From positions 1 to 64,000 of IMG/VR virus record IMGVR_UViG_3300010365_001171: DNA of 64,000 nucleotides; one strand, written 5' to 3'. The stretch is from a virus (lineage: Duplodnaviria > Caudoviricetes). Below the pieces are notes generated by a model. It was not told the DNA's origin. It did no database searches and saw only the letters and a list, made by a program, of their open reading frames with translations. Below are positions 40,466-64,000 of this stretch, piece by piece (position 1 is the stretch's first letter; each line of letters starts with the position of its first letter). Position numbers and translations under genes: made by a program.

Positions 40466-43400
40466 TTATAAATTCCTTTGTGCGTAATCAAATCCTTTGA
40501 TTAATTCATGTGGATGGAATGTATTGCCAGAAATACCTATAATTTTTAATAAGTCTCCTAATACTTTAGGTGCGTCTGGGTCAAAGAATCCTTTTCCTTG
40601 TTTTAGATAAGCATTTTCTTCCCCTGTTAATAACCCAATTGTGTGCTTAACCAAGTTAGAAGTATTTCTATAATGCATACTATAAGCTACTGAAGGAGTT
40701 GTTAAAGTTTTACTAATTTCATTAGCCCCAAGAACAGGCATAAATTGTTCTGTTTCAGAACGGGCTCTTTTAGCTAAATAAATAGCATGAAGTAAAAAGA
40801 AATTAGCATCCTTATCAGGTTCTCCATCACCATCTCCATCAGCTAAAGCTGTAAGAGCAGATGATATGATATATATACATAAGATCATTAGTATCTCAGC
40901 CGCAGCTCTTTTTAAATTAGCTTTTTGTAATGGTGTTTGTGATGTCCACCAATTTTTTGGATTTGTTAAACGTTCTTTACCTGTAACTACATTAAAAAGC
41001 TCTTTAATAACAGAATTATAGAAAGTAATATAAAAACCTTCTGTATAAGTATCACGCATTATATTAGCACGTAAACCTGAAAATCTTTTAGCAAATAATG
41101 GAACAAAAAACTTTCTAAAGAAAAAGGCCATTCTACCAACTGAATACCTTTCAACCATAGCTTGATTTAGCTTTGAATAATTACCATGAAGCCCTTCGTT
41201 TATACTCTGAATTTTATTTATTAAATTAACTTCAGAATCTTGGGTATATTCCATTGTTTTAGAAAATGTTCCTCCATCATTTAACACATAGCTAACATCT
41301 CCTTCAGCAAATTCCATTAGGCCTGTAACTTTAAAATTTTCTTCGTAAGCAGCTAATAAATTAGTAGTCTTACCTTTATAAGTCACAATTCTTGTTTTTA
41401 ACATTCCTAACATAGTAGATATCTGTACTTCGTGCTCTCCTAAATGTCTTAAATAATTTGCAGGGCTATTTTGTACAATTTCTCTTAACGCAGTTCTTTT
41501 AAATCCTTCCTCTATGCTTTCCGAATATTCCCCTGTTATTGGGTCAAATAATGCAACTAATTTAGATATAAAAGACTTATTACCAGATTTAGTAAAATCT
41601 TTCATAAAATCTTTCGCATAATTTAAATAAGCCGCTTCACCAATTTTCCACGTTTTATAATTAAAAAATTCATCTGACATAGATTCAATAGTAATTTGAA
41701 TTCTAGCAGATACCCAGTTTACAACTGCACTAGGTATATTATAACTTAATGAAGTAAAAGCAGCAAAACCATTGACATTATCTACAAATTTAGAAAATAC
41801 CCTGTTTTCTCCTCGCTTTTTATACTCTTTATAAATTTGTGTTAATATAAGTGCTTCTACTTGTTGTGCTCTATAATTTGTGTCGCCTTTAACAAACTTT
41901 TGAGATGTTAAAGTTAACCCCCTAACTAAAGAATTTTGTTTAGCAGACTCTGGAGTATTTTCATTTAAAATTTTAGATATAGATTTAAAAGTAGGCAAAG
42001 ATTTTTGAATTTCATTGGATTGAGCGACATCATATAAATAACCTGTAATATTCCCAAATACATCTAAAGATTGATCCTCCTCTGTTAACTTATTATTATA
42101 TTTAACAGGTACAAATTGAAAAGGTTCACCGGATAATTCCGCTAATCCATAACCATTATCTTTATCTGACGCTGCAAATTTAAATCTATTTTTTGTATAT
42201 GACCATATTTTTTGTCCCTTTTCTTTTATACTTCCTGAATTAAGAAGAGCTTCATTTAATTCTTGTTCCTTTCCACCTAAAAAATACCCTAATCTATTTT
42301 GAATAGTAGTTGTTTTTTGACTATTTAAATAATATTCTGTTAATTCACCTAAAAGTTTTTTTACTTCTGGATTAGTAGAAGCATTAGAATTTTTCCATTT
42401 AGACTCTTTTGGTAAATAACTCTTTAAAGTTTCATCATATACAGACTTGTCATTTTTATAACTGTCTTTAATTTCTCTTGTTTTACTGTATTTATAATTT
42501 GGCGTGTTAATAATGTCTTCTTGCTTTTTAGGTCTAGTAACTGTCCAAATTGTAATCGGTTTACTAACTACTTTATATCCTTTGGAACGGTCGTCCCAAA
42601 CAGTTTTATTATAATGATTATCTAAATACCAAGAGCTATTTTTAAAGTTTTCTTCTACTTTTTTATTAAATTCTTCATCAGTCTCTCCTGTGTTTCTTAC
42701 GGTACTCTGTTCAACTTCAAATTTTTTATTAGCAGAAACTTCTTCATAATAGGTTGTATTTACGGTTTCTTGTAATTTGTCAAGTTCTTTTATTAATTCA
42801 AAAATTTCTTTTTTATTTCCATTAGCACTAGAATTTTGTATTTTTAAATCAATACGTTTAAAATTTTCAAAATCTTCTGGAGTCATTTCTCCTTTTAATT
42901 GTGCGTCATCTATTCCTATTCTATCTACCCAATAGGCCGGCAAACCATATTTTTGTATAATTTTATTAAATAATACTTTTTCATTCGTTGAAACTTCCCC
43001 ATCATCTAAACGCAAAGTTTCCAATTCTTCTTGTATTTCTTTAATTTTAGCCGCCTGCGCTTCTGTATAAAGATCTCCTATAATCTGGTTTTGATCATCT
43101 TTTGCTTGTCTAGATCCCCTTAAAGTGGCTAAATCAAGTCTTAATTGTTCAACACGAGCAGCTTTTTTACTAGAAAGCTCTGCTAACCTATTATAAATTC
43201 TAGTTCTTTCTTCTATAAAAGAATCAGTATAAGAAGCTAAACTATTTTTTTGATGCCAAACAGATAGTTGAAATTTATAATCTTCCTCATTAATAAGTCC
43301 ATCTGAAAGACGCTGTGAAAGAATGCTTTCAAAAACACTTCTATTTTTCTCCCATTTTGCGGCACCTTCTAGGTTATCTACGTTATCATTAAACAAGCCA

Positions 43401-45046
43401 TTAACCTTTTCTCTATAAGAAGACAATTCTTCTGCGATGGCTAATTCTTTCCCTGTTTTTTCCTTACCTGTATAAGCATCATATTTACTATAAAGATTAG
43501 CTTTTTTTAATTGTAATCTTTTATAATCTTTCCAATCTTCTACAGTTAAATTTAACTGGTTTTTATGCATATGATCAAAAAGTGTAATTTCTGCATTTAC
43601 TTCATCTAAAGCTTCTCTTGATTCTAATGAGATATTATCAAAAACTTTATAAAATTCTTCGTTTCCAGGAAGTTCTAAATTCTCTCTCTCCCAAGATTTT
43701 AAATTCTTGAATAACTCATTAACTGTCTTCATTTCTTCAGCGGTTTCAGCTGTTTTCCTAGCTTCAGAATAAGCTCTTTTTAATCTTTTATGCGCATTTA
43801 AAAATTCCCAATTAAAAGTTGTCATTAAAGCAAGTCTTTTTTCAACAACTTCTTCACCATTTTCATCAAAACTTAAAATATTTACCCATTGATATAAATC
43901 TTTATAAGATTCTTTTAAATTATTTTTATTTCCACCATTTAACGTAAATAATCTTTGCTGAAAAGTATCCAAAGTATCCTGTATAAGAATACCTTGTTTT
44001 CTTATGTTTCTCTGATGTGTATTTAATATTTTTTGCATAGCAGAAACAATAGGATCACCAGACATTCCAGCAGATTCTAAATAGGCACTTAAAATACCTA
44101 CATCACCCCCTTTACCAAGTAAAATTTGCTTTATAAGATCCTTGGTAATTCTTTTATTATTTAAGGCCTTTAATTCTTTGGTATACTTATCTATCAACTT
44201 CTCATTTTGCTGCTCCTTAGCACGCTTTAAACGGGTGATAACCCTGCCTTTACGGGCCTCTAACTCAGGATGAGAACCTTCAAGACTATCTTTCATAGCT
44301 TCTAATCTTTTTATTTCCGAAACATCGCCTAATTTATTAGCTTCTACTAATTGTTCATTTATATCAGACAATTGAGATAAAATATTCACATTATTTCCTG
44401 AAATATCCATATTCTTAAACACATCATATAATGTATTAACAACATGATCAAAAGATTTATTATTATACTGAGCTTTAATAAAGCTAAGATTTCTTTCTAA
44501 TTTAGTTAAAGCAACATATACATCATTAGTATCAGGTATATCATTTAAAATAAAATAGTTTTTTAATTCTCCTACTACATCTAAATATGCTACAGCAAAG
44601 TTATTAGCATCAAACAACTGATTATAAATTTCAATTGGATTATCTTTATACTTATCCATAGTTTCTATAAAATGCTTCTTAATAGCCTCAGAAGTTACTA
44701 TACCAGACTGTAAAAAAGCTACAATAGACTGCGCTTGTTTTAAAGTTTCATCTGTAGTTCCTTTATTCAAAGAGCTAAGTCTTGAAGAGGCCTCTTTAAG
44801 TTCTGGAAACTTATGTCTAAGGGCATTAAACCACTCTAAACTATAAGAGGCATTTAAAAAAATTTTTATATTTTCAAATGCTTTTACAAGACCAGAATCC
44901 TTTAATGAATCTAAAGAGTTAACTAAGTCATTTATATTTTTATTTAATTTTTTTTCTTGTAAAAAATCAAACATGGCATCTTCTGATGCAAACTCAAATA
45001 ATCTACCTGACCCTTCGTCAGTAAATGTATATTTACAACTACTCAT
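40466..45046 (-). CDS. giant virion/ejection protein (1526 aa)
   Basis: Helical, acidic; last gene of the giant minus-strand block; starts MSSCKY. Confidence 0.7.
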   Translation of the reverse strand: MSSCKYTFTDEGSGRLFEFASEDAMFDFLQEKKLNKNINDLVNSLDSLKDSGLVKAFENIKIFLNASYSLEWFNALRHKFPELKEASSRLSSLNKGTTDETLKQAQSIVAFLQSGIVTSEAIKKHFIETMDKYKDNPIEIYNQLFDANNFAVAYLDVVGELKNYFILNDIPDTNDVYVALTKLERNLSFIKAQYNNKSFDHVVNTLYDVFKNMDISGNNVNILSQLSDINEQLVEANKLGDVSEIKRLEAMKDSLEGSHPELEARKGRVITRLKRAKEQQNEKLIDKYTKELKALNNKRITKDLIKQILLGKGGDVGILSAYLESAGMSGDPIVSAMQKILNTHQRNIRKQGILIQDTLDTFQQRLFTLNGGNKNNLKESYKDLYQWVNILSFDENGEEVVEKRLALMTTFNWEFLNAHKRLKRAYSEARKTAETAEEMKTVNELFKNLKSWERENLELPGNEEFYKVFDNISLESREALDEVNAEITLFDHMHKNQLNLTVEDWKDYKRLQLKKANLYSKYDAYTGKEKTGKELAIAEELSSYREKVNGLFNDNVDNLEGAAKWEKNRSVFESILSQRLSDGLINEEDYKFQLSVWHQKNSLASYTDSFIEERTRIYNRLAELSSKKAARVEQLRLDLATLRGSRQAKDDQNQIIGDLYTEAQAAKIKEIQEELETLRLDDGEVSTNEKVLFNKIIQKYGLPAYWVDRIGIDDAQLKGEMTPEDFENFKRIDLKIQNSSANGNKKEIFELIKELDKLQETVNTTYYEEVSANKKFEVEQSTVRNTGETDEEFNKKVEENFKNSSWYLDNHYNKTVWDDRSKGYKVVSKPITIWTVTRPKKQEDIINTPNYKYSKTREIKDSYKNDKSVYDETLKSYLPKESKWKNSNASTNPEVKKLLGELTEYYLNSQKTTTIQNRLGYFLGGKEQELNEALLNSGSIKEKGQKIWSYTKNRFKFAASDKDNGYGLAELSGEPFQFVPVKYNNKLTEEDQSLDVFGNITGYLYDVAQSNEIQKSLPTFKSISKILNENTPESAKQNSLVRGLTLTSQKFVKGDTNYRAQQVEALILTQIYKEYKKRGENRVFSKFVDNVNGFAAFTSLSYNIPSAVVNWVSARIQITIESMSDEFFNYKTWKIGEAAYLNYAKDFMKDFTKSGNKSFISKLVALFDPITGEYSESIEEGFKRTALREIVQNSPANYLRHLGEHEVQISTMLGMLKTRIVTYKGKTTNLLAAYEENFKVTGLMEFAEGDVSYVLNDGGTFSKTMEYTQDSEVNLINKIQSINEGLHGNYSKLNQAMVERYSVGRMAFFFRKFFVPLFAKRFSGLRANIMRDTYTEGFYITFYNSVIKELFNVVTGKERLTNPKNWWTSQTPLQKANLKRAAAEILMILCIYIISSALTALADGDGDGEPDKDANFFLLHAIYLAKRARSETEQFMPVLGANEISKTLTTPSVAYSMHYRNTSNLVKHTIGLLTGEENAYLKQGKGFFDPDAPKVLGDLLKIIGISGNTFHPHELIKGFDYAQRNL

Positions 45047-45050
45047 ATTT

Positions 45051-45461
45051 TTAACAATTATTTATTATGCTTCCGTTATCATTTAATTTACTGATATAAT
45101 CTGGATTATCAAAACTTTTTTCAATATTTATTTTTTCTTTTTTTGATTCTTGGCTATTTTCTATATTTTTTAAGGTAGCTACAAGATTATCAGAAAAGGC
45201 TTCAAAATCACTAGAATTTTCAAATTCTATTTGTTTATCATAAACATATTCTATTGCTTTTTGCAATCCTTTATCTATTGTAATGATACTTGAAACACCA
45301 TTAACAGTTTCAACCTTGACTACATTAATATTATTCCAAGTACTGTTTAAATCTTTCATTACATTACGAGCAGCTACCGGGGAATTTCCCCAGTAGTCCT
45401 CAGTAATAAGTTTATTTATAACACCCTTAATAGTTGTTTCTATATTTAATTTACAAGCCAT
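45051..45461 (-). CDS. small protein with Cys at both termini (MACK...INNC)
   Basis: 136 aa; its only two Cys are terminal. Confidence 0.75.
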   Translation of the reverse strand: MACKLNIETTIKGVINKLITEDYWGNSPVAARNVMKDLNSTWNNINVVKVETVNGVSSIITIDKGLQKAIEYVYDKQIEFENSSDFEAFSDNLVATLKNIENSQESKKEKINIEKSFDNPDYISKLNDNGSIINNC

Positions 45462-45462
45462 T

Positions 45463-46290
45463 TTAACAATCTTTTTGTGTAGTTACGGAAGAATTTATAA
45501 TTTTTTGGAGTATTTGAGGATCTGAAATTGTAACCTTTCCAAAATTAGTTTTACCTGTTCCAATAATAGTATTATCAGGTAAAATAAAATACTTAGAATT
45601 ATTATAAGTACTTTCTCTAAGGGTACCTTCTAAAAAGGATAAGTTAGCCTTAATTTTATTAAGAATAGTTTCATTTGTGACCTCTTTACCATTGGCAGTA
45701 AAATATTTACCATCTGTACCGATATTATAAACAGCTCCTGATACTGTTATACTGGTCATATCAGCAGACTTTACTTTAGTTGTTTGAATAACAGCAGGTA
45801 ATTCTTGAGAAGCATCGTTTGTTTTTTCTACTGCTAACCGTTCAAATTTAATAACTTTTACAAGACCTTCACCAGCAGCAGCTACTTCTATACGTTCTTT
45901 TTTAGCTTGAGCTGCATGTTCTTGGTTATTTTCTAATTGAAGGTATTTCTCAAATTCGTCACTATTTTGAAATAATTCATTAATATTTACATCTGAAACT
46001 TCAGTAACTTTAATTTGTAGCATATTTGAGTTTCTAAAATTATTTTCTTTAATAATTAAAGTATCCCCTACACTTATTGGTCTATTTACCTCCAAAGTTA
46101 ATTGTTTTTTCTGACCCTCTAAAATTCTATAATACTCTCCAGGAATAGTAGAAACATAAGAATTCATGTATTCAAAAGTAGAATCCAACTCTTCAACAAT
46201 TTTTTCAAATTGAACTTGTGTACCAGATACACCAACAATATTCAAATAAGAACTTTTAACTTCTTTTTGTGTAAAATCATAAATTAACAT
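45463..46290 (-). CDS. ASCH/PUA-like domain protein ending KDC
   Basis: ILEGQKKQLT...ISVGDTLIIKE...IKVT pattern; overlaps the RNAP ORF end in the +1 frame. Confidence 0.6.
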   Translation of the reverse strand: MLIYDFTQKEVKSSYLNIVGVSGTQVQFEKIVEELDSTFEYMNSYVSTIPGEYYRILEGQKKQLTLEVNRPISVGDTLIIKENNFRNSNMLQIKVTEVSDVNINELFQNSDEFEKYLQLENNQEHAAQAKKERIEVAAAGEGLVKVIKFERLAVEKTNDASQELPAVIQTTKVKSADMTSITVSGAVYNIGTDGKYFTANGKEVTNETILNKIKANLSFLEGTLRESTYNNSKYFILPDNTIIGTGKTNFGKVTISDPQILQKIINSSVTTQKDC

Positions 46291-49200
46291 ACTCTTTTTT
46301 TGCCATAACAGTTAACATATCATGGTTATTTAAATTTTTACCTAAATCTACAAGAGCTGTAATTCTAAATTTATTAAAAGAATGCCCAAAGAAAACAACA
46401 TCACCAACTCTATAACTTTTGTCCTCAATTTTTAAAGTGTCAATTGTTTTATCCCCTTCTTTTACTTGTGTAATAGTTACAGGAAGTGTTAAAGCAGTTT
46501 TTTTACCTTCTATAAATAATTGTTCATTACTTAAAACCCTCGTTTTTACATTATAATAACTAACAGCGCTAGGACTAACAGCTTCAACATTTTGCCAAGC
46601 AGATAATTTAGCAGCGTTTTTAATATTAGTAAAACCATAAAAAGAAAATGTTCCAGTTGCGGGTGTTAAAGTACCTACAGTATCCCCTCCTAGTAAATCA
46701 CTAGAAAAGTTAGGGTCTATTTCTATAAACGCGTTCTTCTTAGATACAATAGTAGGGGATAGTCTAAACAGTCCATTAGAAATCCTTAACTTATATTCTT
46801 TAAAATTACCAGTCCCTTTAGCAGAAATTTCTTTAAATATCCCACCATTATTTTGTCTAAATAAAGCAGGAAAATGGTCTAAAAATCCTTTAAAGAGATT
46901 TGTACCAGATTGTGTCTGAGTTATTTGGCTGATAAAGCTATCTATAAGGGGTCTTACAACATTTCTAAACTCTTCACTAGGTATAAGTTCATTAAAAGTT
47001 GTACCTGTTTTAGATATACCATTCTCTACCAAATTAGTATAAATTAAATCTTTAAAAAATGTTCTAACATCATCTGCAAATTTTTCATCGGGATGCGTAA
47101 ATTCCAGTAAATCACTAAATTGTTTTTCATACGCATTTGCTAACCTACCTGTTATTCTATCACCTTCATACGTAATACTAACAATATTAGAGTTTTTAGA
47201 TTCTTTTTTAGAAAATAAATTTATAAATCTAGTTTCTTTAGCATTTGGCATTACTTCTTCAAATCTATTTTGAAGATTATTTAATCTTGTTCCAATATTA
47301 TTTTCACCTGATAACATTTTGGCATATTTGGTAAAAATATTATTTACAAATTTACCTTCAACTATTAAACCATTTTGAACAATAAAAGATATTAATTGAT
47401 TATAAAAAAGCTTTTCCACTTTTTCAACGGACTTAGCACCATAAATACCTGCTTTAGTTAAATCTAATTTAATTTTAGCAAGTGTATCTAAAACCAAAGG
47501 ATTAGAGGACAATGGAAATAACGGTGTAAATAACTCTTTTAATAAATCAAAATTTTCAAATGCCCTTATTGGAGTTTCATTTTTAATTCTATTATAAACA
47601 ACACTAGGAAAAATATTGTCTGTTTTACTATACTTAGTAACCTTTTGAGATTTATCTATCAATGACATAATATTTGAAGTCTTTCCAGTATCAAAATTTA
47701 ATGTGCCGGTAACATCTCTCAACAAACCACTTTGAAATAATAACTCATCTAATTGAGCTAAATATATTAATTGTCTTTTACTAGAAGGGGAATTTTTATC
47801 AAAATTTAATGGCATAATTAAATCATCAGCCAAAGATTTTGAAATTCTTTCATAAGAAGAATTAGCATATTTTACATAATTAGATAAAAAATCGTTCTTA
47901 ATACCTTTAAATCCTTTATTAGAATCAGAGTACTTTTCTACTAGTGAGTCTTGAACAAAGCTTTTAAAATTACCAGATAATTCCTCATTTCTAGATCTTG
48001 AAAATGCAATTTTTAAAAATTTAGATTCTTTCATATTCAACATCTTAACGTAATCACGTATAATTGGTTGATTCATAAAGTTAGCTACATCAATAGGTGA
48101 AGTTCCCATTTGTAACATATGAAATATTACAGGGGCCATCATTTTACCTGCATTCATATAAAATATAAAGGGTTCTTTTGCTATATCCACATACGCATTT
48201 ATAAATTGTGAAAATAACTCTGATTTTTTAATATCGTCTAAAGTATAACTATGTGAATAATCAATATGTTCAACACCGTCAACAATTACTTTACGATGAG
48301 GTAAAAAATACATTACCTCACGTTTATCTACAAAATTAGATAAATAAGCACCAGAACTTTGGTACAATTGAGTAAATGTGTTTGCTAAGGCAGCTATACC
48401 TAAAGTATCTTTACCTCCTAAAAATGCATTAAACTGCTCTAATATATTTAAAGCATCTAATACTAATGTAGGAGATTTAGATAAATTAAATTCTCCTGTT
48501 CTGGCACCAACAGCAGCTTTAATCTTATCTGCTATTTGATCTTTGATAATATTAGTTGAGTTAGGAGTAACCATACCTTCAAAAGATTCTGGCATTAAAA
48601 GACTTTTAACAGCAACGTCTAACAATCTATTAGAAAAAACAGTTTTTATACCATTTTTATCAAACGTTTTAGTTAAGATAAATGGTTTACTTCCTTCTTC
48701 TATTCCACCACTTATTTTGTACTGAAAAATATTTAATTTATCCACATCAAAATCTGATCCAGCACTAACAACAATTTCTGATGGTACAATAATAGTACTT
48801 GCCATAGAAGGATCTAAGAACTCTACTACTTGCATAACTTCAATTGAATTAAGCCCCTGTGTAGGAATCCTATAACCAACCATAGTTAAGAATTTTTTAT
48901 TCTTTTCTACCCACTTACCCTCTTTAGAATTTTCATCTAATCGAGCAGCCATCAATATAGCATTAAGGTCTTTTATAGACTCTGCTAATGTTTCCCTTTT
49001 AAAATTCTTACCTTCAAATTCTAATGCTAATAAAGCCATATGTTTATTAGGGTCAAAAGAAATTTTTACTTGCATAGCAAGAGTTTCTCCTGTATTAGGG
49101 TCTATTCTATAAAAAGCTAAATCTTTACTATAACCTTTATTTTTAAATCTTTCTTTTACATATGTTTTTTCAAAACCAGTTACAGAAGCTTGTACTAAAG

Positions 49201-54313: not shown

Positions 54314-54316
54314 AAT

Positions 54317-55000
54317 TTACTTCTTTTTTGTTAATGAAGGATTTTTAAAATTTAGAACAGTAGTATTTTCTAACAAATTAAAATATTCTTTCCAGGTTTG
54401 ATTAGATACAAATCTCAAAATACTTCTATAATTAAAATCATATTCTTTACAAATTTGTTTAATTGTTTTAATATTACTTTCTTTATTTGCAATATCTACA
54501 AATTTTAAAATCTGTTCTGAATTTACTTTATCTCCAATTCTATTACCTTTAATTTGGTTTACTATTTTAGATACTTTTTCTTTAGTTTCTTTAGAATGAG
54601 TTTTACCTAATTTCAATTGTCTTTGTGCTTCTTTTTGTTCAGGAGTTCTAATTTTGCCTTTTAGAGATTCAGAAAGATTTTGTTTATGTTCTGATGTAAA
54701 AATTCTGTTTAAATTTGAACCTGCTGTTGGGCAAATATTATATTTAGGTAACAATGTATCTATATAATGTTGTTCTCTAACAAGTAAATTTTCTTTTTCA
54801 CATTCTTCAATTAAAGTTATTAAAAAAGAATCTTCTTTATATTTATTAAATGCTCTTTGAAGTTTAATTGAGTAATGTTTATTTTGTCTTAATAAACATA
54901 AGTGAGAACCTTTTCTAACATTGAAATTAGAACAAGAACCTATATACAAGTTTCCATTTATAGTATTTTCTATTTTATAAATTCCTACCATCTTATCCAC
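54317..55000 (-). CDS. free-standing GIY-YIG homing endonuclease with NUMOD3 repeats
   Basis: VGIYKIEN...LYIGSC; H.Q.LSESLKG and HSKETKEK repeats. Confidence 0.9.
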   Translation of the reverse strand: MDKMVGIYKIENTINGNLYIGSCSNFNVRKGSHLCLLRQNKHYSIKLQRAFNKYKEDSFLITLIEECEKENLLVREQHYIDTLLPKYNICPTAGSNLNRIFTSEHKQNLSESLKGKIRTPEQKEAQRQLKLGKTHSKETKEKVSKIVNQIKGNRIGDKVNSEQILKFVDIANKESNIKTIKQICKEYDFNYRSILRFVSNQTWKEYFNLLENTTVLNFKNPSLTKKK

Positions 55001-58000
55001 AATTAACTTCTAATATACCACTTTTTTTCATAATTTCTATCAAATTATCAATATCTTTTTCTTGATAATTTTGTTTTTCATCTGCTCTCATCCAACCAAT
55101 TGTATTATCTGTTTTAAACTGGGCGTGAGATTGTATAGAAGGAACTATCATAGGAGTTTCAATGTTAGCTTCTATATAACTTCCATTAGTACCACCTGGA
55201 ACTGTTAAGTTAAAATAATGTTGAGTATTTTCAGTAGTTTGTTCTCTTGCTTTTAAATATTCTTCTTTTGTTATTTCTTGTGGTTCTGTAAATGTATCAG
55301 GTTCCCACATTTGAAAGTTTTGAGAGTCTGTAATATCAGATACTTCAAAAATTTGAAGTCCATTTGAACTATATCCTCTTCTATAATATTTATTATTTAA
55401 TACAAAACCATCAGTAGTATTATCTTTATCTAGTTGTTTTTTAGCGGTATTAATCTCAACACTATAACTATAATTGGAAGCTAATTCTAAAACTATTTGT
55501 TCTCTTAAATCAGATTGTTGAGATTGTAAAATATACTCTTTAAATCCTTCTATATCTTGTTTAGAACCCAATATATGAATTTGTTCGGGTTCAAATACTA
55601 CAAAAACATCCCCTCTAGTATCAAAGTCAATAGTATTTCTTCTAATTGTAGTATTATTATTTTCTTTAATATTTAAAATAGCTGGTATAATTCTAGTACC
55701 TACCCTATCTGCAATTTTATATGAACCAAAATAAAAACCCTTAGCCATGTCGTCACTTCTTAGGCCCTGACCTTTACCTATAAAAGATTTATCAAAATTA
55801 TCAAATTTAGGTTTTTCTCTCCCAGAATTATCGAAACCTCTTGTACCATGATAAACAATATCTTTTACTTTACTACCAGGAAATATAGTATCTAAATATT
55901 GAGAATATTGCTCTGATGTACCTATATTAGCTAATTCAGGATTAGATTCAAATAATTCTGGTACACCTTTTGTAGGCTCTGTATTAGAAATTATTTTTTC
56001 TCTATCAGTAATATCTAAATCTAAAAGTAATTGTTTTTGAGCACTAGGTATTTGAAGTTCAGTTAAAATTTTATTTAAATCCCAACCATTCTTTTTACCT
56101 TTTTCAAATACTTGTTTAGCCTTATCAGAAGATAAAATATCTACAGCTTTTAAATTATAATCTACTTTACTTAAATTTAAAGAACTAGACTCTATAACAG
56201 AATTAGCTTGATTATTAATTTTTCTATTTTCAACTTTGTTAAGTAAAACATTTATATCAGAATTTGTAATTTTAAGAGTTATGCCTAAAGATTTTAAAAC
56301 CTCTTTTATAAAAGCCACTATTTTATTATACATAGTAGGGTTAGTAGTAGGAGTCTCTGCTAATTTAGCTATGTACTCTTGTCCAACTTGGCTTATTTCT
56401 GCTTTACTAAGAGATTTGATTTCTTTCCCATAATATAATTGACTAATTTTCTCTATAGCAGCTCTTTGTTGGCCGGAAGATTTTGTAACTAAGTCAGAAG
56501 CAAAAGTATCTAATTTATCACCTAAATAATTTATAACGCCTGCGTGACCTAATGTTTCATGTCTATAAGTTTCTTCAGCCTCTCCCATTGTAGTTAGGTT
56601 AGACTGTATTAAGTACACTTTTCCGGAAGCTTTATGATATAGACCTTTAACCTCACCTTCAGCCCCCATATTTTTAATAGCTTCTTGGATATCTAAAGGA
56701 AGTTCTGTTTCATATTTGACAATAACAGCATCAGGATACCGTTCCTGAAGCTTTTTAACACTCGTACCTCTAGTATCTTTTGTTACAGATGCTGTTTTAC
56801 CTTTTTTAGATAAATCAACTGAAAATGGAGTATCCTCATCATTGTCTAAACTATCAGCTTCATTTGCTTCAGTACTAATTTCTGTAGGATTTAATTCGTT
56901 AGAACCAGTTTTTATAGAATCCTCTTTTATGTTTAAACCGTCTGTGGAAAGAAGGTTTAACTGATCCTTTAAATATTTAAATAATTTTGGTGCTTTTTGT
57001 TCAAGCATTGCTTTACCTGTACCAATACCATCAGCAGGTATTACAATTGTTTTACCACTATCTTTAGCTTGTTGAATAGCTTCATCTACTTGTTGTTTAA
57101 ATTGATTAAAATCTGCATCAGTAAAGTAAGAAGAGTTATTAAATGTAGCTATTTTATACTCTATTTGCCAAGCTTTATTTAACTTAGGTTTTACTTTAGA
57201 ATTAAAATAATCAACAGACCACCCTTCTAAAGAACTCCATTGTTCAGGGGTTTTACCACTACCTACTAATTTATGTAAAGGTTTAGTAACTTCAACTAAT
57301 ACTTTTTTATTATTTTGCCCTTCCCACTCTATTACATCTCCTACCCTTAAATTTTTCCAATATTCAATATGGCCATCAGATTCATATCTTGTAGTAGCAG
57401 TCCTCTCACCTTTTTCAATAGCTTCTAAAGTAGTATTAGCTATAACATCATTTCTCTTATTATCACCATAAGAAAAAGACATCTTACCTTTAGCAGAGGG
57501 TTTAGCTATATTACCTTCATTAGTCTTCCTATTCTTTTTAGTATCAATACCAATAGCATTAGGTAAACCTCTGATAACAGCTTGTGTAGATGAAGGTACG
57601 TATCCTATAGTTCTATCTGATGTATTATCACCAAATAAAAATACCTTATCAGTTTGCTTGGCTACATCAGCTCTAGTCCAAAAGCCATTAAAAAATTCTA
57701 CTTTATTTAAACTAGGGTTTTGTGGAATTTCTAATTGCTCTCCCCTTTTATCAGAAGAATTTACTACCTCTTTAGTAGTATTAATATCTACAGTGCCTGC
57801 TACTGTTGTTTTGACATCAAACTGGCCTTTATACACTAATAAAAGATCTAAAAATCTTTCTACAGTCCAATCCCCTTCTTTTAAATCAGTTGATTCTAAT
57901 TTAGGTTTTAAAAGCATGTCTACCCCTGACTTAAACTTAGTTACAGTTTTTCTAAAAGAATCTTCAACACCACTAAGAATTTTACCTGTTTTAGGGTCAA

Positions 58001-58466
58001 GTCTTTTATTACCCGCCAATTCAATTGCATTAGCGACTTTCTGTAAATTAAAATTTGTACCAGTAAGACCTTCTAAAGACTTTTCTAAGACTTCCTTATA
58101 CAAAATACCATCAAGATTTGCTAACAGCTTATTAAAAACTGTTGGGTTCTCTTTTTCGATTAATTGTAGAAAAGGCAGAGAAAAATGTTTTAATAACGTA
58201 CTATTAGATACTACTTTTCCCTTATTAATGTATACGGTACCTTCGTTGTTAATAACACTTATTTGGTTAGTTAACAAATCATTTACAATACTGTTTACTT
58301 TATATGTTTTTGATTTTTCGAATGATTTAATAAAATCTTCCGAGGAACCCTTCATATCTGTATCAGAGGATTCATTTTGTATAAATTGAGCAACTGATAC
58401 ATACCCATACTTAGCAATTGCCTTTGCGGCTTTTATTAACGTCTCTGACGTTAGACATACACTCAT
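54993..58466 (-). CDS. polyvalent virion protein: Macro-like(+ASCH insert), zincin metallopeptidase, ART-like, LPD-type half domain
   Basis: FLFGDN..QAVIR..NAIGIDTK...GIGTGKA; EGERTATTR..VGD; HETLGH; VYHGT..KGFYF..VVFEPEQI; HAQF..IGWMRAD. Confidence 0.75.
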   Translation of the reverse strand: MSVCLTSETLIKAAKAIAKYGYVSVAQFIQNESSDTDMKGSSEDFIKSFEKSKTYKVNSIVNDLLTNQISVINNEGTVYINKGKVVSNSTLLKHFSLPFLQLIEKENPTVFNKLLANLDGILYKEVLEKSLEGLTGTNFNLQKVANAIELAGNKRLDPKTGKILSGVEDSFRKTVTKFKSGVDMLLKPKLESTDLKEGDWTVERFLDLLLVYKGQFDVKTTVAGTVDINTTKEVVNSSDKRGEQLEIPQNPSLNKVEFFNGFWTRADVAKQTDKVFLFGDNTSDRTIGYVPSSTQAVIRGLPNAIGIDTKKNRKTNEGNIAKPSAKGKMSFSYGDNKRNDVIANTTLEAIEKGERTATTRYESDGHIEYWKNLRVGDVIEWEGQNNKKVLVEVTKPLHKLVGSGKTPEQWSSLEGWSVDYFNSKVKPKLNKAWQIEYKIATFNNSSYFTDADFNQFKQQVDEAIQQAKDSGKTIVIPADGIGTGKAMLEQKAPKLFKYLKDQLNLLSTDGLNIKEDSIKTGSNELNPTEISTEANEADSLDNDEDTPFSVDLSKKGKTASVTKDTRGTSVKKLQERYPDAVIVKYETELPLDIQEAIKNMGAEGEVKGLYHKASGKVYLIQSNLTTMGEAEETYRHETLGHAGVINYLGDKLDTFASDLVTKSSGQQRAAIEKISQLYYGKEIKSLSKAEISQVGQEYIAKLAETPTTNPTMYNKIVAFIKEVLKSLGITLKITNSDINVLLNKVENRKINNQANSVIESSSLNLSKVDYNLKAVDILSSDKAKQVFEKGKKNGWDLNKILTELQIPSAQKQLLLDLDITDREKIISNTEPTKGVPELFESNPELANIGTSEQYSQYLDTIFPGSKVKDIVYHGTRGFDNSGREKPKFDNFDKSFIGKGQGLRSDDMAKGFYFGSYKIADRVGTRIIPAILNIKENNNTTIRRNTIDFDTRGDVFVVFEPEQIHILGSKQDIEGFKEYILQSQQSDLREQIVLELASNYSYSVEINTAKKQLDKDNTTDGFVLNNKYYRRGYSSNGLQIFEVSDITDSQNFQMWEPDTFTEPQEITKEEYLKAREQTTENTQHYFNLTVPGGTNGSYIEANIETPMIVPSIQSHAQFKTDNTIGWMRADEKQNYQEKDIDNLIEIMKKSGILEVNCG

Positions 58467-61400
58467 TATAAACAGTCTTTATAAATTAAATAATCTTCTA
58501 TTGTATTTGATTTTGATAATTTGTGTTCTCTTAATACAAAAGCTTTAAATTTCTGATACTCTTCATTACTTACAAAGTTACCGCTATTTTCTAGCATTTC
58601 CAAATCTTTTTCAATATTTTTTTCATCAGAAAAGAATTTTACACCTTGTGAAAATTTACTTGACAAAACATTAACAAAAGCGGTGTCCGTATAATTCTGT
58701 ATTACTGGACTTCCCTTTTTTAAACTAAAATAAGGAGTGGTACTTTTAAACTTATTATCTAAAGAAATATTGATAGTTCCATTGTCATAAACATACTGTT
58801 TATAATCTCCTTTTACTACCTCTAACTTTCCATTAACGATTTTAAACATATCAGTGGTTTCTTCATCAGTAGAAGTTTTATCAAAGTTTAAATTAATATT
58901 AAAATCTTTACCACCATATGTATAAGTCTTATTAACAACGGATTTAAAATCTTCTATATTATCTATATATTTAATGGAATTATCTTCAGGATTATAAAAC
59001 TGAACAATGAATTTTAATTCATCATTTTTATTATCTAAATAAAAACTAAACATAGGACGTTCTAAATTTGTAGAGTCTTTTAAAGCCAGCTCAGAATTAG
59101 TGTGTGTAGGAAAAAAGTTAAAATCTGATACATTATAAACATTACCTTCTTTATCATTAAATACATATTGACCAAATTTATTTTTACCACCTTTTGTAGT
59201 AATATAAGCAGTCTTAACGCCATCATTATATAAGTACTCTTGATCCGTATAAACTTCTAATTTAGTGCCCTCTAAAGTTTCAATGATAATTTTTTTATTA
59301 ATATTAGTTTTATCTATTTTTTCATTAAACAAGTACTTATTTAATAACTTAGATAATTCTAAACTGGCAGCGCCAGTTTGTTTATTATCCCCCATATAAC
59401 TAAGTACGTATTTAGGTATATCACCACTGAATAATGATTCAAAATAATTTAAAGCTTCACTTTCACTAAAACTTTTTGGTTGTATAAATATTCGATATTG
59501 CCCGTAATTAAAAAATGGAAGATTCTTCTTTTTTTCTTTCCCGGTATTTTTATCTTCCGCATAAAACTTAATCTGTTTAGGATTAGTTAAACCATAAGAA
59601 GTTGGTTTAGGGTCATTTGGCGTTATAACTACATGTCCTACATTAGAAAAAGATATATTATACATCATAGGCTTAGCTTTATGGCTACCCGCTAAAGAAA
59701 CAATCTCTGCTGTTTGACTATTATAAGTTTCTTCAAATTTAGCAATAGCAGCCTCTTCTGTTAAACCCTCAGCAAGATAATTATTAATCATTCTTTCTCT
59801 TCTACCATTAAATGAACGAATATCGCCATTAACAAACCGTTCATTCATATTTTTTTGACTAGGTAGATTAGTAGTTACTATATTCATAACATCTCCATAA
59901 CCAACATCCCCTGGATTTAGTAATTCACCTTCTCTGTTAAAGTACAACATATTACCATCCTTATCTGTAATATGACCTTCTAAAAACCTTTGTTTATCTT
60001 GGTACTCTTCGTTGGTATTTACTGCATAGCCGCCAAATGACTGTCTTGCTAGTTTTCCAGCCTCATAAGCAGCTTCAAAAGTATTTCCTTGAGGTGTGCC
60101 CAAAGAAGCATTTCTAGTAGCTAAAGGCCATGAAATATCAGGCTGAGAAAATGTTATTGCATACTTATCTTTATTACCCTGTTGATCATGGGAAATAAAT
60201 TCAAAGACTTTAAGATTTCTGAGCTGTATTAAATTTGGCTTTGCGGCAGCTTTTTGTTCGGGAGTGCCATAAAGATATAATCTTTCCTCATTAAAATTAT
60301 TTTCTGACTTAACAAAAGTATCAGCAGATTTACCAACAGCTGTTTCAACTGTTTCTACACCTGTAAAATCTTTTGGTGTAACAAATGGGCTAATAGTATC
60401 AACTTTAACAGGTTTTTTAGTCTCTTCAAGTAAAATATCTTGTATTTTATTGTCTATTAAATCATTTAAATTTGCAAATTCTTCATTAGTAATTAATTTT
60501 TTACTGAGGTATTTATTAATATCAGTTCTAACATCATTTAAATCTTGAATAGTTAAATTAGATAAATTTATTTTATTAATTATTTTGTTGGAAGGAGTAA
60601 CTTTATTAACTGAATCAATATCTTTTCCTTCTCTAAATTGTTCTGCTGCATTTTTTATGTTATTTATTAAATTATAATAATGTGGTATAGATTCTGTATT
60701 TAGTACTTCAATTAATGTATTTGGTGTAAAGTTTAAAAAGTTATTTAAAGCTTCTATAGAAGATGTATTAAAACTAAGTAATTGTAAAAGATCTTCTGGA
60801 AACTCAACATTTAAAACATTCTCAATAATAGTATGAAGTTGGCTTGAATTAAGATCTTCTAAGGAGTTTTTTGTTAAGAGATTCTCAAGAACATCACTAT
60901 CAATAAATTCATTTGCTGCTTTTTCTGCTGCAATGTCTTTAAGATGTTGTTCTCTCATTTCCTCTAAAAAGATTTCTTCTGCATTCTCTTTTTGCTCTCT
61001 TTGTAAAACAGCCCTTTCTTCTAACTCCCTCTGCATGGCACTAAAAGACCCATGCGTTACCATTAAATCCAAAATTTCATTATACACATCCATATCGTCT
61101 TCAGTGTCCCTAGCACCTAACTCATGCCAAACACCTCCTGCAAAATCTGAAAAAGATGTGCCACCTGTTTTAGATAAATACCTTTTAAAACCTAAAAATT
61201 CTTTAGGAAACGGCCTTCTACCTATCCTAGTTTCAACTCTAGTGAACGCCTTAACTAAACTGTCTGAATTTATTTTAAATCTCTTTGAGTCGGGGGCTCC
61301 TGCAATACTTACTAAAACTTCATCATTAAGATTAGCGGGCTCAAATTTAAGGAGTGATTCTTTAACATATTTTCTATAATCACGTCTTTCTTTACGCTCT

Positions 61401-64000
61401 TCTTTATTTTTTTTAATTATTATTTTCTTTAGTCTTTCCACAAACCCTGTATAAATTTGAGCTTCTTTAGGATAAGCTTTTAAAATTGAATTAAGTTCAC
61501 CTAAACTAGTGGCGGCTGAAGCTTTTTTAGAAAACTCCATAGTATTGCTTTGTTGGGCAGTAAATTTAGTATCTACTTTTCCTTGATTATCTTCACTAAC
61601 TCCCTGTCCACTAGGACTGCTTTGATCACTTGTTCCAGATTCATTTTGTTTTGTTTTATTGTTTTCTAATTCGTTTAGTTCTGCATCATATTTAGTAATA
61701 GCGTTTAAAACTTCATTATATAGTTCTTTGGAGTCTATATTTGCGGCTTTTGCAACTAATTCTATATTGGGAGTATTTATTATTCTTGGATTACTTAAAT
61801 CGAATCTTTTTGTAGTTTTATTTATGAAAACTTTTACTACTTCTCCTTTTTTACCATTATAACTGTTATTTGGAACTATATAAGCAACTCCTAAACTTAA
61901 ATTAACAAATATCCCTGTATCATTAAAAGTATTATAATCCCATTTTGTAATATCACTATCTAAATTATTTTCTTGTATTTGAATCGCAGAATACGCTTCT
62001 AATGATACTAATCTACTACCACCATAAGTACCATCATTCATTAAAAACAATTGCCCTTTCTTTAAATCTTCTTGTCTTGTTTGTTTTTTTAAATCTAATG
62101 ATGCTTGGTTAATACCACTGCCCGGAGTAACGACTTTTTCTTCTATTCTAGCGTCTTCTTTCTTAAAAGCGTCTAAAACTTCTTTAAACAACCCTAAAGT
62201 CATCAAACTATCCACTAAATCATCATTAGATAATAAGTCATCTAATGTCTTAATATCTTTGAGATTCTTAATAGAACCAGTTTTAATAATTTCATTTTCA
62301 ACAGTTTCATAAATAGTATTTAACGATTCCCCTAATGCATCTTCGTCTAATTTGAAATCTCCTAAAGACTCCATATTATAAACACTTAAATCAACTGGTT
62401 TAACTATTTGATTATTACCAACTTTTATACCTAATAAAGTACTAAGTTGATTAGATAAAAAATCATAGTAAGATTCAGCAAAGTCAACCTCTTGTAATTT
62501 AGAAGCTAAAAATAATTTGGATGCTAAGCCTTTACCAAACAAATCAATTTTTAATTGATCGGCTTTTTCATTAGATAGTACACCTAATAAATGTTTTAAT
62601 CCAGCCTCTTTATCAAGGTTCAAAGGTAAAACTTTATCGCCTACATCCTTATACACCTTTAGTTTATTACCCTCAATTTTAAAATAATAGTCGCCGTTAA
62701 AATTTTTATTCGTAGAAGAATATTTAGCGTACTCAGAGATTATTTTTTCTCTTAATTCTTTATTTTTTAATTCAATAGATTTTTCTTTTACAGCCTCAAT
62801 CTTTTCATTAAAATATTTAGAAAGCTCCTCAATTTGGTCTTTAAATAGCGTTTCTAACATTTCGTTACCGGCTATTAAAGAAGCAAAATCTTTTAGATCT
62901 TCTTTAGAATTAATATTAGCATAAGCCATTTTTACATCTTCAGGCGCTATCTGAAACCCAAATTCATTAACTCCTTGCTTAATATGAACAAGTTCTCTAT
63001 TTGACATTTCAAAGGCCCTTACTAAAAGACCTCGTAGCCTTCCCCTCTCACTAGAAGAAAAATCCTCTGTCCCAGTAATATCAAAAGAATAATTACCTTC
63101 ACTGTCTTTAATTTCAACCTTTACACCATGTTTCTTTTCAATATAATCTTTTAAATCATCAACAAAATCGTTATGAATTTCTTTTTTACCTACTCTTTTA
63201 GTAGCATTTAACTCAAAATCTCCATCTTTAAACTCTTCGTCAGACAAGAAATCTTCAACATCTCTACTATGTGTAATATCATTTTGAATATCATTAAACT
63301 TTTTTTGTATTTCATGTGCATATTTTTGATTTGCAAGTTCATATTGGTGAACTGCAATATTGAATTTTTCAGGCTCTAATAAAGTTTCAAAAGCACTTTG
63401 ACTAAACCTATACATATCATTGTATGAACCTATTTTAGAAAAAGTATTACTTAATGAATTGATATTAATTTTATTTATATTAGAACCATTTACATGATTT
63501 ATATAATTTATAAAATTTTCAGTTGTTCTATTTTTATGATAAGCCTCTAATAATTTAAGTTCTTTTGAAGTATTTAAATCTATGGCATCTTGTTGGCCTG
63601 CAATAATTGGAGTAAAATCTTTGAATAACTCAGTAATTTCACTACTTTCAACACTTAATTTTAGCCTTTCTTTAAGTGTTTTTATTTTTTCTAATCTACT
63701 ATTATCGTCAAAAGCGGTATTAATATTATCTCTTGTTATACCATGTTCTTTATTTAATGCATCAATTAATTTATCAGATTCCTCTACTGCAAATTCTTGA
63801 TTATGTAAATTAAACATTAAATCTTTTTTTGCCATTTCAAAAGAGACATGCTTAAATAAACTTTCTTGATCTCCTTCCTTAATTGTATAAGGATTTTCTA
63901 ATTGTTTATCAATTTTGTTAAAGTTTTCTTCAATCTTACCAGCTTTTGAAATAATTTCATTGACGTAACTCTTAACTTGAGAGATATCTGCTTTTTCATC
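58466..64000 (-). CDS. giant virion/ejection protein, 5'-truncated by the window edge (>1845 aa)
   Basis: Frame is open from 64000 (DEKADISQ...HVSFE-MAKKDL), so the tracked ATG at 63835 is probably internal; ends YKDCL. Confidence 0.75.
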   Translation of the reverse strand, partial: DEKADISQVKSYVNEIISKAGKIEENFNKIDKQLENPYTIKEGDQESLFKHVSFEMAKKDLMFNLHNQEFAVEESDKLIDALNKEHGITRDNINTAFDDNSRLEKIKTLKERLKLSVESSEITELFKDFTPIIAGQQDAIDLNTSKELKLLEAYHKNRTTENFINYINHVNGSNINKININSLSNTFSKIGSYNDMYRFSQSAFETLLEPEKFNIAVHQYELANQKYAHEIQKKFNDIQNDITHSRDVEDFLSDEEFKDGDFELNATKRVGKKEIHNDFVDDLKDYIEKKHGVKVEIKDSEGNYSFDITGTEDFSSSERGRLRGLLVRAFEMSNRELVHIKQGVNEFGFQIAPEDVKMAYANINSKEDLKDFASLIAGNEMLETLFKDQIEELSKYFNEKIEAVKEKSIELKNKELREKIISEYAKYSSTNKNFNGDYYFKIEGNKLKVYKDVGDKVLPLNLDKEAGLKHLLGVLSNEKADQLKIDLFGKGLASKLFLASKLQEVDFAESYYDFLSNQLSTLLGIKVGNNQIVKPVDLSVYNMESLGDFKLDEDALGESLNTIYETVENEIIKTGSIKNLKDIKTLDDLLSNDDLVDSLMTLGLFKEVLDAFKKEDARIEEKVVTPGSGINQASLDLKKQTRQEDLKKGQLFLMNDGTYGGSRLVSLEAYSAIQIQENNLDSDITKWDYNTFNDTGIFVNLSLGVAYIVPNNSYNGKKGEVVKVFINKTTKRFDLSNPRIINTPNIELVAKAANIDSKELYNEVLNAITKYDAELNELENNKTKQNESGTSDQSSPSGQGVSEDNQGKVDTKFTAQQSNTMEFSKKASAATSLGELNSILKAYPKEAQIYTGFVERLKKIIIKKNKEERKERRDYRKYVKESLLKFEPANLNDEVLVSIAGAPDSKRFKINSDSLVKAFTRVETRIGRRPFPKEFLGFKRYLSKTGGTSFSDFAGGVWHELGARDTEDDMDVYNEILDLMVTHGSFSAMQRELEERAVLQREQKENAEEIFLEEMREQHLKDIAAEKAANEFIDSDVLENLLTKNSLEDLNSSQLHTIIENVLNVEFPEDLLQLLSFNTSSIEALNNFLNFTPNTLIEVLNTESIPHYYNLINNIKNAAEQFREGKDIDSVNKVTPSNKIINKINLSNLTIQDLNDVRTDINKYLSKKLITNEEFANLNDLIDNKIQDILLEETKKPVKVDTISPFVTPKDFTGVETVETAVGKSADTFVKSENNFNEERLYLYGTPEQKAAAKPNLIQLRNLKVFEFISHDQQGNKDKYAITFSQPDISWPLATRNASLGTPQGNTFEAAYEAGKLARQSFGGYAVNTNEEYQDKQRFLEGHITDKDGNMLYFNREGELLNPGDVGYGDVMNIVTTNLPSQKNMNERFVNGDIRSFNGRRERMINNYLAEGLTEEAAIAKFEETYNSQTAEIVSLAGSHKAKPMMYNISFSNVGHVVITPNDPKPTSYGLTNPKQIKFYAEDKNTGKEKKKNLPFFNYGQYRIFIQPKSFSESEALNYFESLFSGDIPKYVLSYMGDNKQTGAASLELSKLLNKYLFNEKIDKTNINKKIIIETLEGTKLEVYTDQEYLYNDGVKTAYITTKGGKNKFGQYVFNDKEGNVYNVSDFNFFPTHTNSELALKDSTNLERPMFSFYLDNKNDELKFIVQFYNPEDNSIKYIDNIEDFKSVVNKTYTYGGKDFNINLNFDKTSTDEETTDMFKIVNGKLEVVKGDYKQYVYDNGTINISLDNKFKSTTPYFSLKKGSPVIQNYTDTAFVNVLSSKFSQGVKFFSDEKNIEKDLEMLENSGNFVSNEEYQKFKAFVLREHKLSKSNTIEDYLIYKDCL

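Follow-up and report, generated by a model that had tools for sequence, protein, structure and literature searches.

Facing terminal cysteines at the junctions of giant cargo proteins in a divergent crAss-like phage: a candidate end-to-end tether

Cysteine placement in the cargo proteins

The minus strand of a 64,000-nt stretch of viral DNA, referred to below as the window (bases 1-64000 of the 85,117-nt IMG/VR virus record IMGVR_UViG_3300010365_001171, which is about 70% complete and whose remainder was read as well), carries a series of tightly packed giant open reading frames (ORFs) that runs from 40466 to the end of the window and on to 65890 of the record. Its gene content marks this region, 40466-65890, as the RNA-polymerase cargo block of a crAss-like phage that is very divergent, and its proteins are nearly devoid of cysteine (Cys) except at the ends where one polypeptide faces the next. 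Relatives gain and lose terminal Cys exactly where the polypeptide is broken or continuous, a pattern that, across the sequences compared, points to an end-to-end tether between successive cargo proteins.

The six minus-strand cargo ORFs comprise 8,246 aa and contain 10 Cys, eight of which lie within four residues of abutting termini (hypergeometric P ~3e-17 for 8 of 10 Cys in 48 terminal slots of 8,246 residues). The Cys content of the cargo is 0.12%, versus 1.21% in the other 76 ORFs, an approximately 10-fold difference, and only two of 79 background ORFs have an N-terminal Cys and four a C-terminal Cys. The depleted zone extends to the proteins of 1035, 209, 459 and 424 aa encoded just upstream of the chain, all of which are Cys-free. 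At the breaks of the chain the upstream piece has a Cys 0-2 residues from its C terminus and the downstream piece a Cys at residue 3 or 4. Each of the four junctions has such a pair, whereas the N terminus of the first protein and the C terminus of the last, the two outer ends, have no Cys.

The first chain member, a protein of 2474 aa, occupies 58466-64000 of the window with its C-terminal 1844 codons (minus strand, as for all features of the block), and its gene extends to 65890 of the record. It lacks an N-terminal Cys, and its sole Cys is residue 2473 (codon 58472-58474), in the ending YKDCL*. The 1157-aa polyvalent cargo protein that follows (54993-58466) has Cys only at residue 4 (58455-58457) and residue 1156 (54999-55001). 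Beyond it, a free-standing homing endonuclease gene of the GIY-YIG/NUMOD3 type (54317-54991), which is not cargo and encodes five Cys, takes up the whole gap but for 1-3 nt at either side. The virion-type RNA polymerase (RNAP), 2678 aa in this record (46277-54313), has Cys 3 (54305-54307) and Cys 1398. In a 275-aa ORF (45463-46290) the sole Cys is the last residue (45466-45468, TQKDC*), while a 136-aa connector protein (45051-45461) has Cys only at residue 3 (45453-45455) and at its last residue (45054-45056). The last chain member, of 1526 aa (40466-45046), begins MSSCKYTF with Cys 4 (45035-45037), has an internal Cys 1390 and lacks a C-terminal one.

The original prediction, made from the window, had proposed that these termini join consecutive proteins into an ordered chain. 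Every terminus that it quoted is present in the sequence as it stated, and ATGGCTTGTAAAT, which it had described as identical at two starts, occurs at both MACK starts. The residue positions also bear out its statements that terminal Cys are the only ones in the 1157-, 275- and 136-aa proteins and that the RNAP and the 1526-aa protein have one internal Cys each. It placed the terminal Cys of the first chain member correctly, but the size visible to it, 1844 aa, is not the full length of 2474 aa, as the gene leaves the window.

A frameshift in the RNA polymerase gene

The RNAP ORF and the 275-aa ORF overlap by 14 nt (46277-46290), and neither the end of the one nor the beginning of the other has a Cys, making this the single Cys-less junction of the block. 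Two sibling assemblies from other sources (P0248 and P0338) encode here one RNAP of 2,950 aa with Cys 3, 1398 and 2950. The sibling protein differs from the present RNAP at nine positions only, and it reads EYVNLWYFTQKEV (EYVNLWYFTQ) across the break site. As deduced from the sibling amino-acid sequence, 2 nt have apparently been lost here (TTATG[GT]ATTTT), which creates a TGA and a +1 frame change. A more distant relative, L013, whose RNAP is 57% identical, has the RNAP and the 275-aa sequence as one ORF ending KKNC*, followed by a 144-aa protein of the form MAC...INNC* and then by a protein starting MAEC. Since the siblings and L013 encode one RNAP, the Cys-less boundary is not a native junction, and the 275-aa ORF corresponds to the C-terminal domain of the 2950-aa RNAP of relatives. 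The deletion, seen only in this record among the siblings, would be either a real variant or an assembly error. Judged from these sequences, the normal state is one chain of five proteins, of 2474, 1157, 2950, 136 and 1526 aa in that order, with a Cys pair at each of the four junctions. The layout first proposed, which implied two chains of three, is thus replaced by one chain of five.

A run of seven A residues (46295-46301) lies five codons before the RNAP stop, and a -1 slip on it would produce the ending KKRVC*. We treat this as a coincidence because KKEYVN, which follows the run, is conserved in frame in relatives, and because the real difference from the siblings is the 2-nt deletion further on.

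Cysteine and continuity of the backbone

At the break between the 1157-aa protein and the RNAP, P0004 matches the final portion of the former (E 5e-26) and, after a further 72 residues, residues 34-280 of the latter (E 3e-71). The region across the split is contiguous in 119 homologs and at 80 loci, and the connecting segment contains Cys in none of them (0/119 and 0/80). Since the region is contiguous in all of these homologs and loci, the split is specific to the present lineage. The new ends consist of a 26-aa tail (helix, Gly, strand, Cys; 54996-55073) and a 33-aa head (Cys, hairpin, helix; 54215-54313), 59 aa together. Six proteins have the module internally; none has a Cys at the module boundary, and two of the six are Cys-free over more than 4,400 aa.

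The succession of tail, homing endonuclease and head at this break mimics 'fractured genes', in which, as Dassa et al. are said to have described in 2009, split-intein halves lie on either side of an endonuclease gene that stands free. The residue ahead of the C-terminal Cys is often Asn (VNCG, INNC, ENCL), and both features would suit a true peptide bond, formed by split-intein-like trans-splicing or thioester ligation with Cys in a catalytic role. However, no Hint or intein Pfam family was found in any protein at E<=0.01, the Cys are 0-3 residues from the ends, whereas those of split inteins lie about 100 aa and about 35 aa further in, the position preceding the C-terminal Cys is variable (N, D, E, T, K, I), and tail plus head, at about 60 aa, are too small for a Hint fold. 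The cargo proteins of phage crAss001, moreover, are reported at their individual gene sizes (PMC10172136). We consider peptide ligation very improbable. Of the original proposal that the termini are modules which join neighbors by disulfide or ligation, a pairing of the facing termini has gained comparative support, these being conserved, paired, tied to breaks in the polypeptide and a feature of the proteins, while the ligation has not, no intein or Hint features having been found. A group I intron around the endonuclease was also sought, and the interval 54000-55400 gave no Rfam match at E<=1.

Conservation and pairing across relatives

Counting Cys by position across homologs, a check put forward with the original prediction, showed that the terminal Cys are conserved; these homologs and the loci below are not phylogenetically independent, and the counts are uncorrected for shared ancestry. 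An N-terminal Cys is present in 107 of 119 homologs of the N-terminal part of the RNAP (RNAP-N), and in 77 of 89 in a second set. Within the 119 proteins (186,100 residues), 133 of the 163 Cys fall in the 12 terminal positions, and in most of them the N-terminal Cys is the sole one. Homologs of the 1157-aa protein share internal domains only, and most still start M-x(1-4)-C and/or end C-x(0-5), the terminal Cys often being the sole Cys in 1,000-2,000 residues. Both Cys are kept in connector homologs of 144 and 160 aa (30-37% identity); when the connector is taken with its upstream tail and its downstream head, all four Cys are kept in L013 and L014 (30-66% identical). Nine contigs obtained via homologs again have facing Cys pairs.

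With a profile of the conserved RNAP-N region we found 80 IMG/VR loci and examined the junction upstream of the RNAP-N protein. After dereplication, a first count gave both Cys at 49 junctions, neither at 6, the N-terminal one alone at 5 and the C-terminal one alone at 1, and at 2 there was no upstream ORF within 400 nt. Inspection of the odd junctions revealed four with a small inserted gene between the partners, one miscalled start and one 525-nt gap, after which both Cys were present at 55 of 56 resolved junctions. Among all dereplicated adjacent ORF pairs (n=181), 64 had both Cys, 7 the C-terminal only, 27 the N-terminal only and 83 neither (Fisher P 4e-19); when both proteins were at least 600 aa, the corresponding numbers were 59, 0, 6 and 13.

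These counts bear on the idea that each terminal Cys has a function of its own, for example in tagging the protein for packaging or for recognition by the portal, in processing or as a nucleophile at the N terminus, with the pairing as a by-product. N-terminal Cys are indeed commoner than C-terminal ones in single-protein surveys, and three loci (L004, L008 and L070) have an orphan N-terminal Cys. On the other hand, the first chain member never has an N-terminal Cys and the last never a C-terminal one, unlike what a general cargo tag would give, N- and C-terminal Cys balance in number within genomes, the association in the 181 pairs is tight, and Cys is absent where the backbone is continuous. 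Independent functions are therefore improbable in our view.

Several features of individual loci were recorded along with these counts. At two of the loci with an orphan N-terminal Cys, the two cargo proteins concerned are preceded by a protein of 629 or 565 aa (L004:8112-10001 and L008:15064-16761) with a CxxC near residue 40 in both and a YkuD match for the L004 copy, which might be the missing partner or a redox helper. The four small genes inserted exactly between a tail-Cys gene and a head-Cys gene (L044:9414-9902, L074:5751-6230, L072:9045-9401 and L080:9243-9596) encode Ferritin (PF00210) at two loci and DUF5856 at the other two. Their products may handle iron or oxidants in relation to thiol oxidation, or the junction may be a tolerated insertion site; neither family was found when searched for in the 85-kb record. 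Start choices hid an N-terminal Cys in two cases, L012:3475-3503 (gene caller) and L090:1578-1640 (first-ATG rule). Since an upstream ATG in L012 (MSVKC) and a downstream ATG in L090 (MAC) restore the Cys rule, the rule can help to place start codons.

The arrangement in crAss001

The chain gp47, gp50, gp49 of the cultured phage crAss001 (GenBank MH675552) obeys the same rule. In gp47 (2341 aa) the sole Cys is residue 2339, in gp50 (2412 aa) Cys occupies positions 5 and 2404, and in gp49 position 5 only. The facing ends are the C-terminal CNS of gp47 and CITTNSTIEELA of gp50, and then ICGANTLYEL of gp50 and CAIIPQVR of gp49. The gene for gp47 is on the opposite strand, convergent to that for gp50, and this opposite-strand arrangement is repeated in L007 and L009.

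We asked whether the Cys codons might instead be a nucleotide or translational signal, with TGT codons beside the stop and the start serving ribosome hopping, translational coupling or recognition by an endonuclease. All eight codons in the present block are TGT, they flank the stop-start within 13-19 nt, and a hop would fuse the ORFs. Yet partner genes are on opposite strands in crAss001, L007 and L009, inserts of 0.4-0.7 kb separate partners (the endonuclease here and the inserted genes of L044, L072, L074 and L080), 1-5 codons often stand between the C-terminal Cys and the stop, mixed TGT/TGC pairs exist, and there is no reason for a hop always to occur at Cys. The opposite strands, the inserted junction genes and the variable distance from Cys to stop exclude hopping and coupling, and a signal of this kind is hardly credible as the explanation. 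Programmed bypass, or stop-hopping, was rejected as well, as take-off and landing codons on one mRNA, with the take-off beside the stop, do not agree with the opposite strands, the codons between Cys and stop and the inserts. The Cys pairing is, by these comparisons, a feature of the proteins that is independent of gene adjacency.

The crAss001 proteins also bear on intramolecular closure, in which the N- and C-terminal Cys of one protein would pair with each other. The middle members of the chains (the 1157-aa and 136-aa proteins, the 2950-aa RNAP and crAss001 gp50) do have both Cys. But the end members (the 2474-aa and 1526-aa proteins, gp47 and gp49) have a single terminal Cys that always faces the neighbor, the N-terminal Cys is the sole Cys of most RNAP-N proteins, and the type of a tail matches the head of the next protein and not the head of its own. 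Closure of this kind is highly improbable.

Tail and head modules

The original prediction had described a helix-strand-Cys pattern for the tails and an M(A/S)xCK-strand-strand-helix pattern for the heads. This applies at the junctions between the 1157-aa protein and the RNAP and between the 136-aa and 1526-aa proteins, which share a Gly-strand-Cys tail and a head of the form C-x-Y-x-Y/F...G...Y/F-S/T-x-E-E/D-F; the other two junctions have a different tail and a Cys-helix head. The Cys-hairpin-helix head begins 14 otherwise unrelated proteins, which supports the view, at the level of sequence, that it is a portable module carried by non-homologous proteins. Its combination with the Gly-strand-Cys tail recurs in L006, L012, L053 and L066, and the P[FL]xC tail occurs only with a C.V..NSI head (6/6). 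Tails and heads were classed with regular expressions, a crude procedure from which only these two pairings are reported. The co-occurrence fits cognate docking pairs, with counts that are inflated by shared ancestry.

It also bears on the main rival explanation, that the facing ends dock non-covalently or share a metal ion, in the manner of a zinc clasp with one Cys per partner. The reducing cytoplasm in which assembly occurs would allow a metal bridge and prevent a disulfide, and some head families have a conserved His five residues after the Cys (C-I-N-x-x-H-P-E). Tail and head types co-occur, and the halves of the conserved region that is split at one junction probably must reassociate in any case. 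Against this, one Cys per partner provides two ligands only, and the junction types do not all share any additional conserved ligand. Many tails are short and charged with the Cys last, which is better suited to a flexible covalent link, and the purge of all other Cys suggests thiol oxidation as a hazard under management. Taken together, metal bridging or docking without a covalent bond appears unlikely.

A proposed mechanism and its weak points

We lean, if only by a little, towards an intermolecular disulfide at each break that re-joins the pieces into one thread. The five polypeptides of 2474, 1157, 2950, 136 and 1526 aa would be parts of a single giant polyvalent cargo protein whose gene has been split. 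The short tail and head modules would bring the facing ends together, and in the virion, once assembled or released, the two facing thiols would become linked by a disulfide between the molecules. Re-joined head to tail, the pieces would make a single thread of approximately 8,200 residues with almost no side stubs. Internal Cys would have been purged, leaving no other cross-links and allowing the thread to unfold and traverse the tail, and the reducing cytoplasm of the host would open the links and free the individual enzymes. Thiol oxidation would be a hazard that is being managed, since all other Cys are strongly purged. Inter-subunit disulfides occur throughout the crAss001 virion, and its cargo must cross constrictions partly unfolded (PMC10172136).

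A number of points weigh against this disulfide-linked thread. The evidence for the proposed tether is comparative. Many hosts are gut anaerobes that provide a reducing setting, and oxidation may perhaps occur only after exposure to air. Searches of the 85-kb record, itself about 70% complete, for thioredoxin, glutaredoxin and an Erv/ALR oxidase found none. The cargo gene that precedes the orphan N-terminal Cys of L004, L008 and L070 lacks a terminal Cys. Many C-terminal tails look disordered and charged, and specific docking is not evident for every junction type. AlphaFold2 models place both termini in low-confidence segments that are uninformative on contacts, the predicted local distance difference test score (pLDDT) being 52 for the 136-aa protein and 56 for P0141, with the split-site region below 50.

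A bolder reading, which we regard as possible but doubtful, is that the unit of tail, stop, start and head is a portable gene-fission cassette, the disulfide counterpart of a split intein. Such a cassette would insert where a giant cargo gene encodes a surface loop, in some cases bringing a homing endonuclease with it (as at 54317-54991), and would yield two ORFs while supplying the docking pair and the Cys pair that re-join their products. If so, Crassvirales cargo would be packaged and ejected as one redox-cleavable thread that could be reshuffled piece by piece.

Gene layout and identity of the cargo block

In the order of transcription, the block consists of genes for proteins of 1035, 2474 and 1157 aa, the GIY-YIG/NUMOD3 endonuclease, and proteins of 2678, 275, 136 and 1526 aa. 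Tail and virion PHROGs lie upstream of it and replication genes adjoin it, a layout that is the same in loci L004-L012 and in crAss001. At residue 1854 of the 2678-aa RNAP is SAGSDFDVDKLN, with the DFDxD motif of two-barrel RNAPs; the catalytic DFDVD (48740-48754) lies within SAGSDFDVD, a motif of crAss-type virion RNA polymerases. The RNAP also has a zincin HExxH motif, HEAWH (53234-53248). Searches found no match for the RNAP among phage records by megablast and no direct match among PDB sequences, the PHROG search gave nothing for five of the six cargo proteins, and the Pfam search gave nothing for four of the six. DUF7831 was found by Pfam in the 1157-aa protein, which also matches an unnamed PHROG, and the 275-aa ORF gave only a sub-threshold ASCH match. 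A search for related loci with the N terminus of the 1526-aa protein returned no match.

The homologs of the 1157-aa protein belong to the 'polyvalent' injected proteins, as among them they have helicase, ART-PolyVal, NADAR, Zeta-kinase and AlkB domains. The presence of several unrelated effector domains per polypeptide, including a zincin HExxH, by which such proteins are recognized (Iyer et al. 2017), is found in this cargo. From homology and Cys depletion, the products are probably packaged in the virion and ejected. DUF7831 of the 1157-aa protein is split by a 127-aa insert (residues 318-444; 57135-57515, minus strand), which shares about 80% identity with stretches that other polyvalent proteins have at quite different places and is more conserved than its host proteins. 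These alignments give it the look of a beta-rich domain that is mobile.

Five other crAss-like contigs have an interruption of the RNAP gene at DFDxD or beside it (SGSD / FDIDHLY), consisting of an endonuclease gene of the LAGLIDADG or HNH type or of a 334-nt gap (L005:9173-9820, L009:15012-15722, L010:9280-9972, L007:15155-15700 and L012:9667-10001), and the apparent protein ends that result have no Cys pair. The interruptions in these five contigs are probably introns. A 193-aa ORF in the virion block (79035-79616 of the record, minus strand; L003:5035-5616) ends KLKKEC*, and the next gene has no N-terminal Cys; this end may be due to chance or have another partner.

Comparison with known systems

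Crassvirales, the most abundant phages of the human gut, have to pack and deliver approximately a megadalton of cargo protein, the polymerase with which infection begins among it. The order of ejection must depend on packing and mutual interactions, according to the crAss001 atlas (PMC10172136). A covalent head-to-tail thread, if it exists, would provide for co-packaging at fixed stoichiometry, ordered passage through the tail and release of the enzymes by reduction in the cytoplasm, and would explain the free splitting and fusing of these genes in evolution. The Cys rule may also be of practical use, as it predicts true start codons, exposes frameshifts (it flagged the RNAP/275 break here) and marks cargo genes in uncultured phages. 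Since crAss001 and phi14:2 are in culture and mass spectrometry data on reduced and non-reduced virions exist for crAss001 (PMC10172136), a rapid test of the idea is within reach.

These Cys are unmentioned in the paper on polyvalent proteins, in the preprint on the phi14:2 RNAP and in the crAss001 atlas, the last two of which are also silent on a link between the proteins, and a full-text literature search found nothing else; an end-to-end Cys tether thus appears to be undescribed in the literature found. New in the present block are the tracing of the apparent exception to a 2-nt deletion, the 136-aa connector with two Cys, and the lineage-specific split of a conserved region with its endonuclease.

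The closest known systems are the cargo blocks of cultured Crassvirales, gp47, gp50 and gp49 of crAss001 (PMC10172136) and gp66 with the products of g065 and g067 of phi14:2 (bioRxiv 10.1101/2020.03.07.982082). They share with the present block giant neighboring genes, a two-barrel RNAP with DFDxD and a zincin HExxH, and their cargo is packaged in the virion and presumed to leave it in a partly unfolded state (same sources). The present block differs in being too diverged for PDB, megablast and, for most of its proteins, PHROG matches, and in having five pieces, including the 136-aa connector, with an endonuclease inside one junction. In the Schitoviridae, Cys is suppressed in the ejected giant virion RNAP and its partners (N4 gp50-52 and DEV gp71-73), which has been explained by passage through the oxidizing periplasm (PMC11445570). 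Those ejection proteins have essentially no Cys, termini included, whereas here Cys is purged except for the facing terminal pairs.

The polyvalent proteins of phages and conjugative elements (PMC5512222) are likewise multi-domain injected proteins, and in some phages they are single huge polyproteins. Proteolytic processing of one chain has been proposed for them, with no mention of Cys (PMC5512222), while the present chain is split genetically and apparently re-joined.

Two further systems offer a parallel for the joining itself. As in fractured genes, a conserved coding region is broken here into two ORFs with an endonuclease gene in the gap and short modules at the new ends that are expected to re-join the products; unlike in fractured genes, there is no Hint fold or splicing motif, the Cys are at the extreme ends, and a reversible side-chain link would be expected and not a peptide bond. 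In nonribosomal peptide synthetases and polyketide synthases, docking domains formed by the C-terminal tails and N-terminal heads of successive polypeptides fix their order. The present chain would be alike in that its tails and heads would set the order of the pieces, and its gene order is mostly colinear with the chain order. It differs in that there is no sequence relation, the contact is apparently backed by Cys, and its purpose would be packaging and ejection and not the channeling of substrates.

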